Positions 3,067-16,528 of a stretch of 59,995 bases of DNA are shown here, one piece after another. Made by a program: the position numbers and the translations under genes. The DNA is taken from NCBI GenBank assembly GCA_012842275.1, contig DUSK01000095.1:1-59995 (forward strand), given 5' to 3'. Source of the stretch: Syntrophaceticus sp. (GTDB lineage Bacteria > Bacillota > DSM-12270 > Thermacetogeniales > Thermacetogeniaceae). Position 1 is the first letter of the stretch; each line of letters opens with the position of its first letter. The notes below the pieces were generated by a model, which saw only the letters and a program-made list of their open reading frames with translations, was not told where the DNA came from and made no database searches.

Positions 3067-3947
3067 AATATCCGGATTTAGGAATTGCTCTGGGGGGAGG
3101 AGGGCTCTTAGGGGTAGCACACATCGGTGTTTTGGAGGTCCTAGAAGAGAACGGGATTTTACCGGCTATTGTGACCGGTACCAGTGCAGGAAGCCTTGTA
3201 GGCGCTCTCTATGCTGCCGGAGTAGAACCTTCAGCCTTAAGAAAACTGTCAGTGAGCTTGCAAAAAAAGGATCTCTTCTCCTGGAATTTTAACCCTTACT
3301 CCTTTATCAGGTTTTTGTTGGATAACCTTAGGGATATGGCCAATTTTTTAGAGGCGTCCCCAAGAGCCTTGTTCAGTGGGGAAAAGATCAGTGAACTGGT
3401 TGTTAATCTTACCAAGAAAAAACGCTTTAATGAGATCCCGGTGACTTTCGGTGTGGTGGCAGTGGATCTGATCACCGGAAAAAAAGTGGTGTTTTCCAAT
3501 AAAGTGATCAATCTGTCACCGGAAACCCTGTATTTCCCCAATGCTCCCTTAGGCTTGGCTGTCCAGGCCAGTTGTGCCATTCCCGGTGTTTTTGAACCGG
3601 TTCCCTACCGGGGGGCACTGCTCGCAGATGGTGGGCTTGCCGAAATGGTACCTGCTCAACTGGCACGCCATTTGGGCTCCCGTATTGTAGTGGCAGTGAG
3701 TTTAAAAAGAATGGGGAGTGTACAGGAACCGGAAACCCTTATCCGTGTGATCCAGCGGAGTATCGATATTATGACACTGCAGAACACGCAGCTTGATCTG
3801 AAGTTCGCTGATCTTGTTATTGACCCCCTTGCCTTTGATGCCAGCTTAGGGGATTTTGAACGGGTGCCTGAGCTATTAGATCGTGGGCGCCAGGCAGCCG
3901 AGAAGGCGATTCCGGCTTTGAAAAAGCTGTTGGGGATCAATAGCTAG
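3063..3947 (+). CDS. patatin-like phospholipase
   Basis: GIALGGGGLLG oxyanion motif, GTSAG nucleophile elbow (GxSxG), ADGG Asp motif. The start overlaps the upstream stop (ATGA). Confidence 0.85.
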   Translation: MKYPDLGIALGGGGLLGVAHIGVLEVLEENGILPAIVTGTSAGSLVGALYAAGVEPSALRKLSVSLQKKDLFSWNFNPYSFIRFLLDNLRDMANFLEASPRALFSGEKISELVVNLTKKKRFNEIPVTFGVVAVDLITGKKVVFSNKVINLSPETLYFPNAPLGLAVQASCAIPGVFEPVPYRGALLADGGLAEMVPAQLARHLGSRIVVAVSLKRMGSVQEPETLIRVIQRSIDIMTLQNTQLDLKFADLVIDPLAFDASLGDFERVPELLDRGRQAAEKAIPALKKLLGINS

Positions 3948-4049: not shown

Positions 4050-4412
4050 ATGGGCGGTTTTACCTATGATGAAAAGGCGCTTTCAGTTTTTAAAAGCCTG
4101 CGGCCCTACCTTGGCCCACAGGGAAACGGCTGTCTTATGGCTTTAGAAAGCATACTTGAGTTGCTTAATAGTGAACCAGCTAAAAAAGCGCTGGATTCTT
4201 TAAAAATCCTTAGCCCAGGGGAGGGGTTTAAAACCCTAGAACTGGAGAGTAAACAGCCTAAGTATTTGAGCCCATCTAAGCTTTTTCTACTGCAAGCCTT
4301 GTTATTTTTAGCCGATGCTCCTGTGTCAGCTAATATGGTTGTTGAAAGAGCAGAAAACGAAGAGGTCACAGAAGAAAATCATAACATATTGGATTATGAT
4401 GCTTACGTATAA
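4050..4412 (+). CDS. hypothetical protein, paralog of 5196-5492
   Basis: Track ORF 4044-4412; ATG 4050 has an AAAGGGGGA RBS. The N-terminus MGGFTYDEKALSVFKSLRPYLGPQGN..LESILELLNSE parallels MAVVMYDENAIQVLNSFRPYLGHKGN..LNGILDLLSSE. Hydrophobic LFLLQALLFL segment near the C-terminus. Confidence 0.65.
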   Translation: MGGFTYDEKALSVFKSLRPYLGPQGNGCLMALESILELLNSEPAKKALDSLKILSPGEGFKTLELESKQPKYLSPSKLFLLQALLFLADAPVSANMVVERAENEEVTEENHNILDYDAYV

Positions 4413-4424
4413 AAGGTAAAAATT

Positions 4425-4455
4425 GTAACACTTTGCTTTGAACAACATATTATGG
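4425..4455 (+). promoter_or_regulatory. mother-cell type promoter candidate for tiny peptide 1
   Basis: GTAACA, 16-nt spacer from AC, CATATTATGG (4446-4455). Confidence 0.4.
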
Positions 4456-4525
4456 AGTAAAAAACTAACTGATGTGGGTTGAATTGTAACAGATATGGTG
4501 CCCGCATTCAGACTGGAGGGATAAT

Positions 4526-4627
4526 ATGGAATCTAAGGGATTTGGTTTTGGTGGCGGATTTGGAGTCAATAGTTGGGCTTTTATTCTCTTCCTGATTCTG
4601 GTTTTGCTCTTCTTCGGTGACAATTAA
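4526..4627 (+). CDS. tiny membrane peptide, YjcZ / tiny_TM_bacill-like (33 aa)
   Basis: Hand translation MESKGFGFGGGFGVNSWAFILFLILVLLFFGDN. GGAGGG RBS 6 nt upstream. Too short for the ORF track. A Gly/Phe-rich head plus one hydrophobic helix resembles Bacillus YjcZ-type sporulation peptides. Confidence 0.7.
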   Translation: MESKGFGFGGGFGVNSWAFILFLILVLLFFGDN

Positions 4628-4645
4628 ATTCCTGACTGAAAACTT

Positions 4646-4676
4646 GTAACACCTTTCCTCAAAGAACATATTATGG
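4646..4676 (+). promoter_or_regulatory. mother-cell type promoter candidate for tiny peptide 2
   Basis: GTAACA, 16-nt spacer from AC, CATATTATGG (4667-4676). Confidence 0.4.
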
Positions 4677-4737
4677 TGTTGAAAAAAACAACCAGCTGAG
4701 GAAGGTCCGAAGCTGAGATGATTAGGAGGGATAATGG

Positions 4738-4824
4738 ATGGAGGCAAAGAGTTTTGGTTTCAAAAATAATATTGCGTTTATATTGTTCTTGATTCTGATT
4801 TTGCTCTTTTTCGGTGATAACTAA
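4738..4824 (+). CDS. tiny membrane peptide, YjcZ-like paralog (28 aa)
   Basis: Hand translation MEAKSFGFKNNIAFILFLILILLFFGDN, with AGGAGGG RBS upstream. The antisense track ORF 4508-4747 is rejected. Confidence 0.65.
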   Translation: MEAKSFGFKNNIAFILFLILILLFFGDN

Positions 4825-4831
4825 AATATAT

Positions 4832-4858
4832 AAGGCACCCGCTTAGGACGGGTGCCTT
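4832..4858 (+). terminator. hairpin / weak terminator after tiny peptide 2
   Basis: AAGGCACCCG / CGGGTGCCTT 10-bp stem with a 7-nt loop and only a short T tail. Confidence 0.45.
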
Positions 4859-4892
4859 TAGATTACAGCACAAAGCTTTTAACCCAAGACTT

Positions 4893-4923
4893 GTAACCCC
4901 TTTCCTAAAAAAACATATTATGG
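4893..4923 (+). promoter_or_regulatory. mother-cell type promoter candidate for tiny peptide 3
   Basis: GTAACC, 16-nt spacer from AC, CATATTATGG (4914-4923). Confidence 0.4.
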
Positions 4924-4987
4924 TGTAGAAGCCTGATTAATTTTCGGTCAGGTGGGATTTACCCGAATTTTGAATGGAGGGATGGTA

Positions 4988-5092
4988 ATGGAATCCAAGG
5001 GATTTGGTTTTGGCCGGGGATTTGATGGCAAATTTGCACTGATCTTATTCCTGATTCTGATTCTGCTTTTCTTCGGGGATCACAGATGGTAA
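4988..5092 (+). CDS. tiny membrane peptide, YjcZ-like paralog (34 aa)
   Basis: Hand translation MESKGFGFGRGFDGKFALILFLILILLFFGDHRW, with GGAGGGATGG RBS region upstream. Confidence 0.7.
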   Translation: MESKGFGFGRGFDGKFALILFLILILLFFGDHRW

Positions 5093-5128
5093 ACGGTTTT
5101 ATAGTTTAAACTTTGTACCGGGTTTGCT

Positions 5129-5161
5129 GGGAGGCCACCCGCATTTACGGTGTGGCCTCCC
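5129..5161 (+). terminator. stable hairpin after tiny peptide 3 (no clear U tract)
   Basis: GGGAGGCCAC / GTGGCCTCCC 10-bp GC-rich stem with a 13-nt loop. Confidence 0.35.
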
Positions 5162-5195
5162 CTTATCAAAACGGCAGCAAAAGAAGGGGAGGAAG

Positions 5196-5492
5196 ATGGC
5201 AGTTGTTATGTATGATGAGAATGCGATTCAAGTATTAAATAGTTTTCGTCCTTATCTGGGACATAAAGGCAATCTGATCCTTGATACCCTTAACGGGATA
5301 TTAGATTTACTTTCCAGTGAATCTGTTCAAGAATTCATTTCCCTGGTGCATAATTCCCAGCATAATTCCAGTGATCAGCATGCCCGGCAGTTATTTGAAG
5401 GCCAAGAAAAGAGGGAGGCCAATCCTTTTACCCTTTTCCTGATTCTGATCTTACTCCTTCTTTCTGATTTTAATGAAAGCCCAATATCATGA
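5196..5492 (+). CDS. hypothetical protein, paralog of 4050-4412
   Basis: Track ORF 5124-5492; ATG 5196 follows an AAGGGGAGG RBS. The C-terminal FTLFLILILLLLSDFN closely resembles the helix of the neighbouring tiny peptides. Confidence 0.65.
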   Translation: MAVVMYDENAIQVLNSFRPYLGHKGNLILDTLNGILDLLSSESVQEFISLVHNSQHNSSDQHARQLFEGQEKREANPFTLFLILILLLLSDFNESPIS

Positions 5493-5517
5493 AATAAATG
5501 ACCCGGAGGGATAAATA

Positions 5518-6822: not shown

Positions 6823-7641
6823 GTGATTTCCAAAAAATTGCGCTATTCTATCTCCGCCATTCTTGTCGGTATACTGCTCACAGTGATGCCCTTAACAGCT
6901 TTTGCGGCCACAAGGTATGTCTATTATCAGGGCAGTCTCAGTGATCAGCTGTTGATCAGTATCCTGAAAAGGGTTTTTCCTTGTGATGATTTAAAAATCA
7001 TACGCCCCCAACCGGTTCCACAGCCTGAACCAGAACCACAGCCGGAACCGGAACCGGTGCCTCAGGATCCGCAGCCTGAGCCTCAAGAGCCAGAGCCTGA
7101 GCCTAAGGATCCACAGCCTGAACCTGAGCCTCAGGAGCCGCAAAAACCTGATCCACAGCCACAGCCACAGCCGCAACCGCAACCACAACCTCAGCCACAG
7201 CCACAACCTCAACCACAGCCGCAGCCTGAACCTAAACCTGGCTCTGATGTGATTGCTCTGACCCAGGATGAACAGAAGATGATCAATCTGGTCAACCAGG
7301 AGCGACAGAAACACGGGCTGAAACCTTTAGAGGTAGATTATCAATTGGTGAAACTGGCCAGGATGAAAAGCCAGGATATGGTGGACAAGAATTATTTCAG
7401 TCACCAGTCGCCAACCTATGGCTCTCCCTTTGACATGATGAAAAATGCCGGAGTGCGCTATCGCTGGGCAGGAGAAAACATAGCCGGTGCCGGCACTGTT
7501 GAGAGGGCGCATACCGCTTTGATGAATTCTGAGGGGCACCGCGCCAATATTTTAAATCCGAACTTTACCCATATCGGTGTCGGTATAGTTAAAGGCGGCC
7601 CCTATGGAATGATGTTTACCCAGATGTTTATTGGAAAATAG
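6823..7641 (+). CDS. YkwD-like CAP/SCP domain protein with N-terminal anchor and Pro-rich linker
   Basis: GTG start after AAAGGAGACGA. N-terminal hydrophobic signal/anchor, then a PE/PQ linker. The C-terminal domain reads LVNQERQKHGLKPL..YFSHQSPTYGSPFDM..AGENIA..ALMNSEGHRANILNPNFTHIGVG, typical of YkwD/CAP. Confidence 0.8.
   Translation: MISKKLRYSISAILVGILLTVMPLTAFAATRYVYYQGSLSDQLLISILKRVFPCDDLKIIRPQPVPQPEPEPQPEPEPVPQDPQPEPQEPEPEPKDPQPEPEPQEPQKPDPQPQPQPQPQPQPQPQPQPQPQPQPEPKPGSDVIALTQDEQKMINLVNQERQKHGLKPLEVDYQLVKLARMKSQDMVDKNYFSHQSPTYGSPFDMMKNAGVRYRWAGENIAGAGTVERAHTALMNSEGHRANILNPNFTHIGVGIVKGGPYGMMFTQMFIGK
7003..7242 (+). repeat. in-frame Pro-Glu/Pro-Gln low-complexity coding repeat
   Basis: About 80 codons of PEPEPQ-type units, including 12 consecutive CCN-CAR (PQ) dipeptide units at 7153-7224. 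Confidence 0.9.
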
Positions 7642-14574: not shown

Positions 14575-15447
14575 ATGATTTCAGATAGGAATAAAAAGTG
14601 GGAAATCATCATTACTTCATATGCCAAGGTCAACCTTACCCTGGATGTGGGTGATCTCAGACCAGATGGCTACCATGAGATCGCTTCTGTGATGCAGACC
14701 ATCACCCTTGCTGATACTCTCTGGTTTGCCAGAATCCCCTCCGGTATTGAGGTCATCAGTGATAATTCAGGAGTCCCCTCTGGCTGTGCCAACCTGGCTT
14801 ACAGGGCGCTGGAAGTGATCGCTCACCAGCTCCCCGGTGGTGTCAGAGTGTTGATCGAAAAAAGGATACCCTGGGGTGCGGGTCTGGGTGGAGGAAGCAG
14901 CAATGCTGCGGCAGCTTTAAAAGGGGCTGATCTTCTTTATAACTGCGGCATGAAAGAGGAGGAGTTGCTTGCTGCTGCAGCAGAGGTTGGCTCTGATGTC
15001 CCCTTTTTTATTAAAGGGGGCACGGCCCTGGCTGAAGGAAGGGGTGAAAGACTGACTGAGTTGCCCCGGTTGCCTGTTTTCTGGCTTGTGCTGGTCAAGC
15101 CACCCTTTACAGTCAGCACAGCCGAAATTTACAGCCTTTATCAGGGCAAAGGGGGGAAGCCACGCACACCGGGGCTGATTGAAGCCTTGCAAAAAGGCGA
15201 ACACCATAGGATTCCCGGTTTATTGGGCAATGACCTGGAGGGTGTTACGGTCAGCCTTCATCCGGAAATAGGGGAGATCAAACAGCAGTTGTTGCTGTTG
15301 GGTGCAACCGCAGCATTAATGTCAGGCAGCGGCCCCACAGTTTTTGGTTTGTTTCATGAACAGGGGGCAGCCCGGCAGGCAGCGGAGAGGATAAGAAAAG
15401 ACAGCGGTTTGGAGGTGTTTGTCTGCAGAACCTGCTCTGCAGATTAA
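14575..15447 (+). CDS. ispE: 4-diphosphocytidyl-2-C-methyl-D-erythritol kinase
   Basis: YAKVNLTLDV and the GHMP kinase motif PWGAGLGGGSSNAAAAL. Confidence 0.9.
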   Translation: MISDRNKKWEIIITSYAKVNLTLDVGDLRPDGYHEIASVMQTITLADTLWFARIPSGIEVISDNSGVPSGCANLAYRALEVIAHQLPGGVRVLIEKRIPWGAGLGGGSSNAAAALKGADLLYNCGMKEEELLAAAAEVGSDVPFFIKGGTALAEGRGERLTELPRLPVFWLVLVKPPFTVSTAEIYSLYQGKGGKPRTPGLIEALQKGEHHRIPGLLGNDLEGVTVSLHPEIGEIKQQLLLLGATAALMSGSGPTVFGLFHEQGAARQAAERIRKDSGLEVFVCRTCSAD

Positions 15448-15518
15448 GATTATTGGTTTGTCCCTTATAGAAACTCTTCTTTAGTCGTTAGAGGAGATAG
15501 TTGCGGGTTAGTGAGTAT

Positions 15519-15723
15519 GGTTTATCCCTGTAAGCGCAGCGACCTTACGAAGGTTGTTACTTGCCCTTGACGAAGGAGCAGGTAACGACAGCTGAAGCTC
15601 AACATGGATGTTGAGCTAGGCGACTCTGCGCCATGGATGGCGTCATAGGAGCCGGTCAGCTGTCGTCTGCGACGAGTCTTAGGGCAAGTTCAACCGAGTT
15701 CAGGAGCAAGCGCAGGGATAAAC
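15519..15723 (+). ncRNA. candidate structured RNA of unknown class (strand tentative)
   Basis: Nested long-range complementarity: 15520-15530/15713-15723 (11 bp), 15552-15567/15681-15695 (14 bp with a small loop) and 15585-15595/15656-15666 (11 bp). These enclose two hairpins, 15597-15616 and 15628-15643, with identical CA-UGGA-UG tips. No ORF of 60 aa or more in the 360-nt gap. Confidence 0.45.
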
Positions 15724-15808
15724 AAAAGAATACAAACGAACCCTTGAGGGTAGAAAACCGGGCGGTGGAACCATCCCCTGATCGGTAAGATAGATAAGGA
15801 GGTTATTT

Positions 15809-16528
15809 ATGGCTGAAAATAAAGAGAGGAGATTGGTGCCGGTCAAATTGGACAGCTATAAGCCCCTGCGGGAGGTGGTTTTTGAAACCCTGCGGGAGGC
15901 GATCATTACAGGTGTCCTGCGCCCAGGGGAACGGTTGATGGAATCCCAATTGGCAGAGGAGTTGGGTGTCAGCAGAACTCCGGTGCGTGAGGCTATCCGC
16001 AAGCTGGAATTGGAAGGTTTTGTGGTGATGGTTCCCAGGAAAGGGGCCTATGTGGCAGGGATCTCTTTGAAAGATATCGCTGATGTATTTGAGGTCCGGG
16101 CTGCCCTGGAGTCTCTGGCTACTGAACTGGCAGCTGAGAGGATCACTGAGGATGAGTTGGAAGAACTGGAACGGATCCTGGTCAAAATGTCGGAAATAAT
16201 CGAGAAGGGAGAGATTGAACAGTTAGTTGAGTGTGACAAGAAATTTCATGACACACTCTACAGGGCCAGCAGAAACCGGCGTTTGATGCAGATCTTGAGC
16301 AATCTCCAGGATGAAGTGCAGCGTTTTCGTTCTGTTTCCCTGGCTTACCCGGGACGGATGCGCACAGCTTTAGAAGAGCACCGTAAGGTTGTGGAGGCGC
16401 TGGCTGAAAGGGATCTTGTCCAGGCCAAGGTTCTAGCCTGGGAGCATATTGAGAGTGCGGAAAACAGCCTACTGGAAGCTGTGCGCGAGCATGAGGATAT
16501 AGTTAGTGAAAGGGAAGAGTTGGTATAA
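15809..16528 (+). CDS. GntR family transcriptional regulator (FadR/FCD subfamily)
   Basis: N-terminal wHTH ESQLAEELGVSRTPVREAIRKLELEG plus an all-helical FCD-like C-terminal domain. AAGGAGG RBS. Confidence 0.85.
   Translation: MAENKERRLVPVKLDSYKPLREVVFETLREAIITGVLRPGERLMESQLAEELGVSRTPVREAIRKLELEGFVVMVPRKGAYVAGISLKDIADVFEVRAALESLATELAAERITEDELEELERILVKMSEIIEKGEIEQLVECDKKFHDTLYRASRNRRLMQILSNLQDEVQRFRSVSLAYPGRMRTALEEHRKVVEALAERDLVQAKVLAWEHIESAENSLLEAVREHEDIVSEREELV

Follow-up and report, generated by a model that had tools for sequence, protein, structure and literature searches.

The main finding of this analysis was the identification of the folded block between ispE and the adjacent regulator gene gntR as a member of the TwoAYGGAY family. 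We consider it, with a probability of about 0.72, to be a copy of a 206-bp non-coding and non-autonomous palindromic repeat that spreads within and between genomes and that landed at the ispE-gntR junction. As shown by comparison of copies and of orthologous loci, the element is multicopy with unrelated flanks, is inverted in the closest relative, is missing from orthologous sites in other genomes, and displays neither an orientation bias nor a recurrent neighbour gene. The label "mobile" rests on this distribution and not on mechanism, since no target-site duplication, conserved target or autonomous partner was found. The element has no function specific to gntR. The multicopy and mobile behaviour of TwoAYGGAY does not appear in the accessible papers on the family and is new here; the fold and the CsrA-like loops are a rediscovery, the family having been described in 2010 and its loops noted in print in 2015.

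In the window (the whole stretch of DNA that was analysed, 59,995 nt), ispE occupies positions 14575-15447 and the GntR/FCD regulator gene positions 15809-16528. Pfam supports both genes and their neighbours, a cyanophycin synthetase upstream and an NTP-transferase, SpoVG and GlmU downstream. The gap between the two genes measures 361 nt and its longest ORF (15633-15788) has 51 aa, in agreement with the initial annotation of this DNA, which had described a 360-nt gap devoid of ORFs of 60 aa or more. This 51-aa ORF was rejected as a gene, since it lacks a Pfam match and the inversion of the element in the relative L038, described below, would destroy it. A consensus scan of positions 15300-15900 revealed neither a sigma-70-like promoter nor an intrinsic terminator on either strand, and csrA is absent from the 60-kb window. 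An element of about 205 nt had been placed at 15519-15723; the discrete folded block was confirmed, and its limits were corrected to 15518-15723 (206 nt) by comparing copies, whose homology stops at these coordinates. The unit takes in a TG located 5' of the terminal repeat, and it lies 85 nt upstream of the gntR start in sense orientation, the orientation also found in the related locus L122. Its parts are the following:

15518-15723, plus strand: whole repeat unit, 206 nt, TGGTTTATCCCTG...CAGGGATAAAC, from blastn of the window against the fetched loci
15520-15531, plus strand: left terminal inverted repeat, GTTTATCCCTGT, forming the 12-bp outermost helix with 15712-15723, outside the Rfam model
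15534-15595, plus strand: 5' rod arm (P1 region), helices broken by small internal loops, identical in the minimum-free-energy (MFE) and centroid structures
15545-15702, plus strand only: Rfam RF01731 match, E = 3.5e-6 for the whole window and 2.6e-8 in a local scan
15552-15556/15691-15695 and 15559-15567/15681-15689 (9 bp), plus strand: inner helices of the MFE fold
15578-15581/15667-15670 and 15585-15595/15656-15666 (11 bp), plus strand: inner helices of the MFE fold
15596-15617, plus strand: hairpin 1 of the MFE fold, 9-bp stem AGCUCAACA/UGUUGAGCU (15596-15604/15609-15617), loop UGGA at 15605-15608
15619-15653, plus strand: hairpin 2 domain of the MFE fold, core CAUGGAUG
15629-15642, plus strand: hairpin 2 tip of the MFE fold, CGCCA/UGGCG (15629-15633/15638-15642), loop UGGA at 15634-15637
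15656-15711, plus strand: 3' rod arm of the MFE fold
15712-15723, plus strand: right terminal inverted repeat, GCAGGGATAAAC, pairing with 15520-15531

Folding of 15519-15723 reproduced every nested long-range stem listed in the initial annotation. The plus strand reached an MFE of -107.2 kcal/mol, compared to -66.1 +/- 4.8 kcal/mol in dinucleotide shuffles (z = -8.57, with 0 of 200 shuffles as stable), and the suspicion that such pairing is unlikely to arise by chance was thereby borne out. The MFE and centroid structures of the element are identical. In them, 15520-15595 pairs with 15656-15723 in a closing P1 stem of about 54 bp in interrupted helices, and the twin CA-UGGA-UG tips that had been noticed earlier fall at 15596-15617 and 15629-15642, both being UGGA tetraloops closed by CA/UG. 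The motif AUGGAU occurs at 15604-15609 and 15633-15638, in the tetraloop hairpins in both structures. The element contains six GGA triplets, of which two lie in terminal loops, two partly in internal loops and two in paired regions, the same count of loop-presented triplets as given before. The description of a discrete element, a rod with a forked tip, is supported by the fold as well as by the comparison of copies. Because the minus strand folds almost as well as the plus strand (-97.9 kcal/mol, z = -9.25), the rod is nearly strand-symmetric and close to a true palindrome.

The element had been regarded as matching no familiar RNA class, a view that did not survive the family scan. When the entire window was compared to the covariance models of Rfam 15 by cmscan, RF01731 (TwoAYGGAY RNA) was the sole gathering-level match, with 54.4 bits against a gathering score of 43 and coverage of model positions 1-168 of 168; both hairpins aligned at high posterior probability. 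TwoAYGGAY was defined by two terminal loops with AYGGAY, originally from Clostridia, Gammaproteobacteria and human-gut metagenomes, with a P1 stem that is "often very large", and it was considered a likely RNA without a cis-regulatory role (Weinberg et al., 2010; PMC2864571). The present element shares with this RNA the full-length model match, the two adjacent AYGGAY hairpins, the long P1 and the occurrence in Clostridia, and it differs in nothing essential, being a member; the RF01731 model leaves out the outermost 25-30 nt of each arm, with the 12-bp terminal repeat among them. [quoted passage not shown] Gardner and Eldai reported that the TwoAYGGAY loops fit a CsrA-binding-site model and proposed a CsrA-sequestering sRNA of Clostridia, its validation being work in progress, at a time when no CsrA-antagonist RNA was known in that class (Gardner and Eldai, 2015; PMC4333381); none reported since 2015 was found in the literature searched. 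The CsrA-sponge role that the initial annotation had raised at low probability had thus already been published for this family. A preprint from 2025 refers to TwoAYGGAY as a "relatively unexplored motif" of unknown function. Neither an experimental test of the CsrA proposal nor CsrA-binding data for any member of the family were found in the searchable literature; in bioRxiv 10.64898/2026.09.22.753630, RF01731 appears nine times, without the term "CsrA".

The family-wide alignment adds evidence for the hairpins, whose stems covary strongly. Compensatory changes among homologues, the check that had been suggested earlier, are present: the stem of hairpin 1 beyond ACA/UGU covaries across 101-115 family members, the search pattern having fixed the loops and closing pairs, so that only outer stem pairs are informative. 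Its three variable pairs occur as GC, CG, AU and UA with 72-95% pairing, compared to about 24-42% when the partner is slid, and the hairpin stems score 0.345 for covariation, compared to 0.082 in shuffles, with 0 of 500 reaching the observed value.

Close relatives of the window differ in the presence, position and orientation of the element. The 206-nt unit was recovered by blastn at 99.5% identity in L038/L124, where it is inverted, 96.1% in L122, 95.2% in L116/L126 and about 90% in L120, L121, L123 and L125. L038 ("Clostridia bacterium DTU068") and the matching metagenome contig L124 are syntenic with the window, with flanks 90.6-93% identical. Their copy is reverse-complemented, bears a single mismatch in 206 nt and lies 2-3 nt after the ispE stop, compared to 70 nt in the window. 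From the flank divergence of about 8%, some 16 mismatches would be expected in the unit, and the Poisson probability of one or fewer is near 1e-6. L122, 90.2% identical to the window over 13.7 kb, carries the element at the same position as well. Copies 90-95% identical with unrelated flanks occur at another site of the DTU068 scaffold (L120/L123), in a genome of the Syntrophomonadaceae (L116/L126), and in L121 and L125; among copies at least 90% identical there are six or seven distinct insertion contexts, one of them in the Syntrophomonadaceae genome. In L133-L138, whose GntR is 89% identical, the ispE-gntR spacer has 115 nt and the element is absent, and it is also absent from L139-L142 (GntR 81-82% identical), in which ispE and gntR overlap or abut. 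The exact pre-insertion sequence was not recovered because the spacers have diverged. These contigs with GntR orthologues fix the direction of the change, and the element is therefore a lineage-specific insertion into a former ispE-gntR operon junction.

Two contigs of the window species (L130 and L132) end inside the element, and breaks of this kind may be either the usual effect of multicopy repeats on assemblies or a result of inter-copy recombination. In L131 (Ga0211716_1010668), a hybrid element follows spoIIIAB and spoIIIAC and precedes gntR; the left half is similar to the copy of L125 and the right half matches the window copy exactly. This contig is either chimeric through misassembly at the repeat or a genuine recombinant. 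The whole intergenic region 15401-15800 is 94-98% identical between the window and L122, with coding flanks at about 90%, which suggests recent homologous exchange or non-coding constraint; the former could in part explain the high identity of the element.

Other repeats were observed around the same junctions. The sequence GGAACCATCCCCTGATCGG at 15767-15785, just upstream of the gntR ribosome-binding site, is part of a second short repeat family (GGGACAGTCCC...GATCGG), whose members recur beside other element copies in related genomes (flanks of L120, L125 and L131), partly as tandem units of about 90 nt, and which the element directly abuts in L120 and L125. The element-less relatives (the ispE-gntR spacer of L133-L138, and L139 at 3263-3643) contain GTTAGTC/GTTGGTC heptads that flank a small GGAATTCGC/GCGAATTCC hairpin as an inverted repeat, and a trace of this heptad repeat, TTAGTCGTTAG, persists in the window at about 15481-15491. 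The sequence TGGTTTGTCCCT (15454-15465) agrees with the element end in 11 of 12 positions and was considered as a possible trace of an older copy, but 114 of 500 shuffles did as well and this reading was rejected.

The family at large behaves in the same dispersed manner. A search of a species-representative genome collection with the pattern ACATGGATGT, 10-33 nt, GCCATGGATGGC returned at least 120 loci matching the two loops. Those listed belong mostly to Gammaproteobacteria (Luteimonas, Lysobacter, Pseudomonas, Shewanella, Methylobacter, Photobacterium) and also to Clostridia, Lachnospiraceae, Spirochaetota and Desulfobacteraceae; none of the at least 120 matched loci came from Alphaproteobacteria, Burkholderiales, Bacteroidota, Actinomycetota or Cyanobacteria. 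Among the matches listed, many genomes hold two to six or more loci (five in one Luteimonas genome, five in another genome, three in each of two Pseudomonas strains), and some contain copies in head-to-head, inverted pairs. In Pseudomonas sp. NPDC087358 (L082), four tandem copies lie about 300 nt apart. According to crude gene calls, orientation with respect to tandem neighbours is the same in 24 cases and opposite in 24, and convergent contexts number 22 against 9 divergent ones. An all-against-all blastp of the ORFs within 2.5 kb of about 128 copies recovered no recurrent protein family, only spurious ORFs overlapping the repeat, and no linked transposase was seen within that distance. Neither a target-site duplication nor a shared flanking motif was found at seven junction sets. 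The 206-nt unit gave no blastn match in plasmid and phage collections, and the two-loop pattern matched one viral contig only. In the Clostridial lineage of the window the entire 206-nt rod is conserved between copies; in Luteimonas, the copies within a genome have just the tip of about 75 nt in common, and their rods differ yet stay complementary. As judged from the copies compared, only this twin-hairpin tip of about 75 nt is conserved across phyla.

Some individual settings deserve mention. In the Pseudomonas mendocina group (L006, L020, L054, L064), an imperfect palindrome of about 780 nt, with repeats 90-92% identical, carries two inverted TwoAYGGAY cores and many GGA triplets. In the Methylobacter contig L101 (2259-3364), csrA and a tRNA precede the element by about 500 nt on the same strand, and in Luteimonas L003 (4593-5206) it is about 40 nt from the RNase P RNA gene.

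Several classes of bacterial repeats resemble this element. As in MITEs, near-identical copies with unrelated flanks are present together with filled and empty orthologous sites, but target-site duplications are absent at all inspected junction pairs. With ERIC/IRU sequences, REPINs and Correia-type elements it shares a length of 100-250 bp, an imperfectly palindromic sequence that forms a long hairpin whichever way it is oriented, numerous intergenic copies in each genome, often between convergent genes, insertion polymorphism between close relatives and a likely co-transcription with flanking genes. In those families conservation concerns the stem or the ends; in the present element it is the tip that is shared across phyla, with the rod free to diverge. 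A target-site duplication accompanies Correia and typical miniature elements, and REP sequences have a GTAG signature and a linked RAYT; the present element has none of these. An origin from IS200/IS605 or from REP/REPIN was rejected, since no tetranucleotide is common to the 5' flanks of seven copies and a GTAG signature is lacking, and so was an integron attC site (RYYYAAC...GTTRRRY), because the ends GTTTATC...GATAAAC are in the wrong order and fit poorly, with neither an array nor an integrase. The initial annotation had named a known repeat or mobile-element terminal sequence as the result that would count against a discrete folded RNA; in substance such a repeat, multicopy and dispersed, is what was found, and the fold and the family membership stand.

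The main rival reading, which we consider unlikely, is that the element acts at the DNA level only, its twin hairpins being recognised as folded single-stranded DNA by a transposase or recombinase acting in trans, as for REP/RAYT and IS200/IS605-derived sequences. The resemblance to CsrA sites would then be coincidental and the RNA fold a by-product. A multicopy, dispersed distribution with no orientation bias and no target-site duplication would suit such an element, as would the predominance of convergent over divergent contexts, which is usual for intergenic repeats. The strand signals are mixed overall. Besides the nearly equal folding of both strands, G-U pairs number 499 against 444 on the complement, and this near-symmetry shows that there is little selection on the rod specific to one RNA strand, so that it could be maintained as palindromic DNA; templated correction in such a palindrome could also explain, without selection on RNA, why rods vary within one genome and remain complementary. 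Of 78 elements, 55 fold better on the loop-bearing strand, with a mean advantage of 5.7 kcal/mol, and the sense strand is richer in GAG, GGA and GAA than in their complements (2.1-fold for GAG and 1.39-fold for GGA at unpaired positions). This purine-rich asymmetry is typical of structured RNA and argues against a role restricted to DNA. The same is true of the lack of a transposase or any other recurrent gene near the roughly 128 copies, of the lack of both the conserved 5' tetranucleotide that IS200/IS605 needs and a REP signature of the GTAG type, and of a conservation that affects the tip and not the ends. The loops of both hairpins, moreover, fit the CANGGANG core exactly, and the named genera among the matches listed all fall in groups with known CsrA.

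Returning to the mobile palindromic repeat as the preferred explanation, the copy at the ispE-gntR junction is probably co-transcribed, in sense orientation, with the ispE-gntR mRNA, because no promoter or terminator is detectable around it and the two genes abut in relatives. The operon RNA would fold into the interrupted rod of about 54 bp and present the two CA-UGGA-UG hairpins, and the rod would serve, irrespective of its orientation, as a scaffold for stabilisation or processing.

With regard to the conserved tip, the initial annotation had pointed out that the loop sequence is close to the CsrA SELEX consensus, and this likeness extends further, since both loops match the optimal CsrA-binding hairpin. 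The SELEX consensus RUACARGGAUGU and the RsmE-hcnA consensus (A/U)CANGGANG(U/A) reportedly come from work by Dubey in 2005 and Schubert in 2007. Hairpin 1, ACAUGGAUGU, is an exact fit to the full RsmE consensus, and hairpin 2, CCAUGGAUGG, is an exact fit to its core. The loop GGA triplets of the two hairpins are 29 nt apart, and one CsrA dimer can bridge two sites separated by 10-63 nt. The named genera among the matches listed all belong to groups with known CsrA. Because the hairpins match the optimal CsrA/RsmE site and their spacing suits a single dimer, we tentatively propose CsrA binding or titration as the likeliest molecular activity of the conserved tip, at somewhat less than even odds. 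Against this proposal, only two of the six GGA triplets are in loops, copies are antisense to their neighbours as often as sense, and the operon transcript of L038 would carry UCCA instead of UGGA loops. Considering this orientation balance and the UCCA loops of L038, CsrA binding through read-through transcription cannot be a general requirement.

The Csr/Rsm sRNAs (CsrB, CsrC and RsmX/Y/Z; CL00106) are the natural comparison for this activity. They have in common with the element GGA triplets in hairpin loops, the fit to the SELEX and RsmE consensus sequences, a pair of sites at a spacing that a single dimer could span, and taxonomically placed matches within CsrA-carrying groups. The sponges, on the other hand, have about 5-22 loop GGA triplets compared to two here, and the element is a long double-stranded rod and a dispersed multicopy repeat without its own promoter or terminator at this copy, according to the consensus scan. 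A stand-alone gene for a trans-acting sRNA, a sponge like CsrB or RsmZ with its own promoter and terminator, is a very unlikely description of the element. Its placement with the Csr/Rsm sponges in Rfam agrees with that description, and so do the GGA-rich stretch of several hundred nt around the Pseudomonas core and, in one Methylobacter contig, the position shortly after csrA and a tRNA on the same strand; independent sRNA genes would likewise have no orientation bias relative to their neighbours. Nevertheless, no promoter-like or terminator-like site is present in 15300-15900 on either strand, and the flanks of different copies are unrelated. The conserved unit also stops exactly at the base of the rod, so that an internal promoter would yield a transcript without the 5' arm, and just two GGA triplets are presented in loops.

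A cis-acting leader or riboswitch-like control of gntR, the NTP-transferase gene and spoVG, which had been offered as an alternative in the initial annotation, is highly improbable, and in the form of a dedicated gntR leader it can be considered effectively refuted by the comparison of loci. The location 85 nt upstream of the gntR start, in sense orientation in both the window and L122, would suit a leader, but the element is inverted in L038/L124, and L133-L142 lack it with an unchanged gene order. Other copies adjoin unrelated genes, with no recurrent neighbour and no constant position or orientation before one gene family, and TwoAYGGAY had already been scored as not cis-regulatory (Weinberg et al., 2010; PMC2864571). 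Hardly credible at all is an inverton, an invertible DNA switch flipped by a site-specific recombinase at the 12-bp terminal repeats: opposite orientations do occur in the same intergenic region of two close relatives and perfect 12-bp inverted repeats bound the unit, but the asymmetric TG outside the terminal repeat travels with the element, the position is shifted, by about 70 nt at one side and by 9 nt at the other, only one orientation occurs among the contigs of any given lineage, and no recombinase gene is nearby.

Other features of the window were observed in passing. A weak resemblance to the DUF2815 RNA motif across the gntR 5' region (15747-15811), with 19.2 bits (gathering score, 41.2; E = 0.51), was dismissed as chance. 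Positions 4400-5500 contain three to four direct repeats spaced by 220-460 nt (families D2, D3 and D13), among which are repeated small ORFs encoding a hydrophobic segment similar to LILILLFFGD, and upstream sequences that recur as well; the region looks like a tandem small-gene family. The ORF at 6823-7641 has a signal-peptide-like start, a long Pro-Gln/Pro-Glu repeat, encoded by CCACAGCC-type DNA repeats at 7006-7250, and a C-terminal domain, and its product is probably a secreted or wall-associated protein.

The reading of TwoAYGGAY as a mobile palindromic repeat, which we prefer, has consequences for the family as a whole. One extension, which we regard as speculative and rather improbable when taken as a whole, is that TwoAYGGAY elements are transposable CsrA-decoy cassettes able to land in any transcribed region. 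In such a cassette the rod would be cut, for example by RNase III, and would release a stable twin-hairpin mini-RNA that titrates CsrA. If so, the copy number and the insertion sites would tune global post-transcriptional control, and with inverted pairs such as those in Pseudomonas the output would be the same whichever way transcription runs. With or without this extension, functional models of TwoAYGGAY must fit a dispersed, orientation-indifferent and horizontally shared repeat, and individual copies should not be read by annotators as leaders of the adjacent gene.
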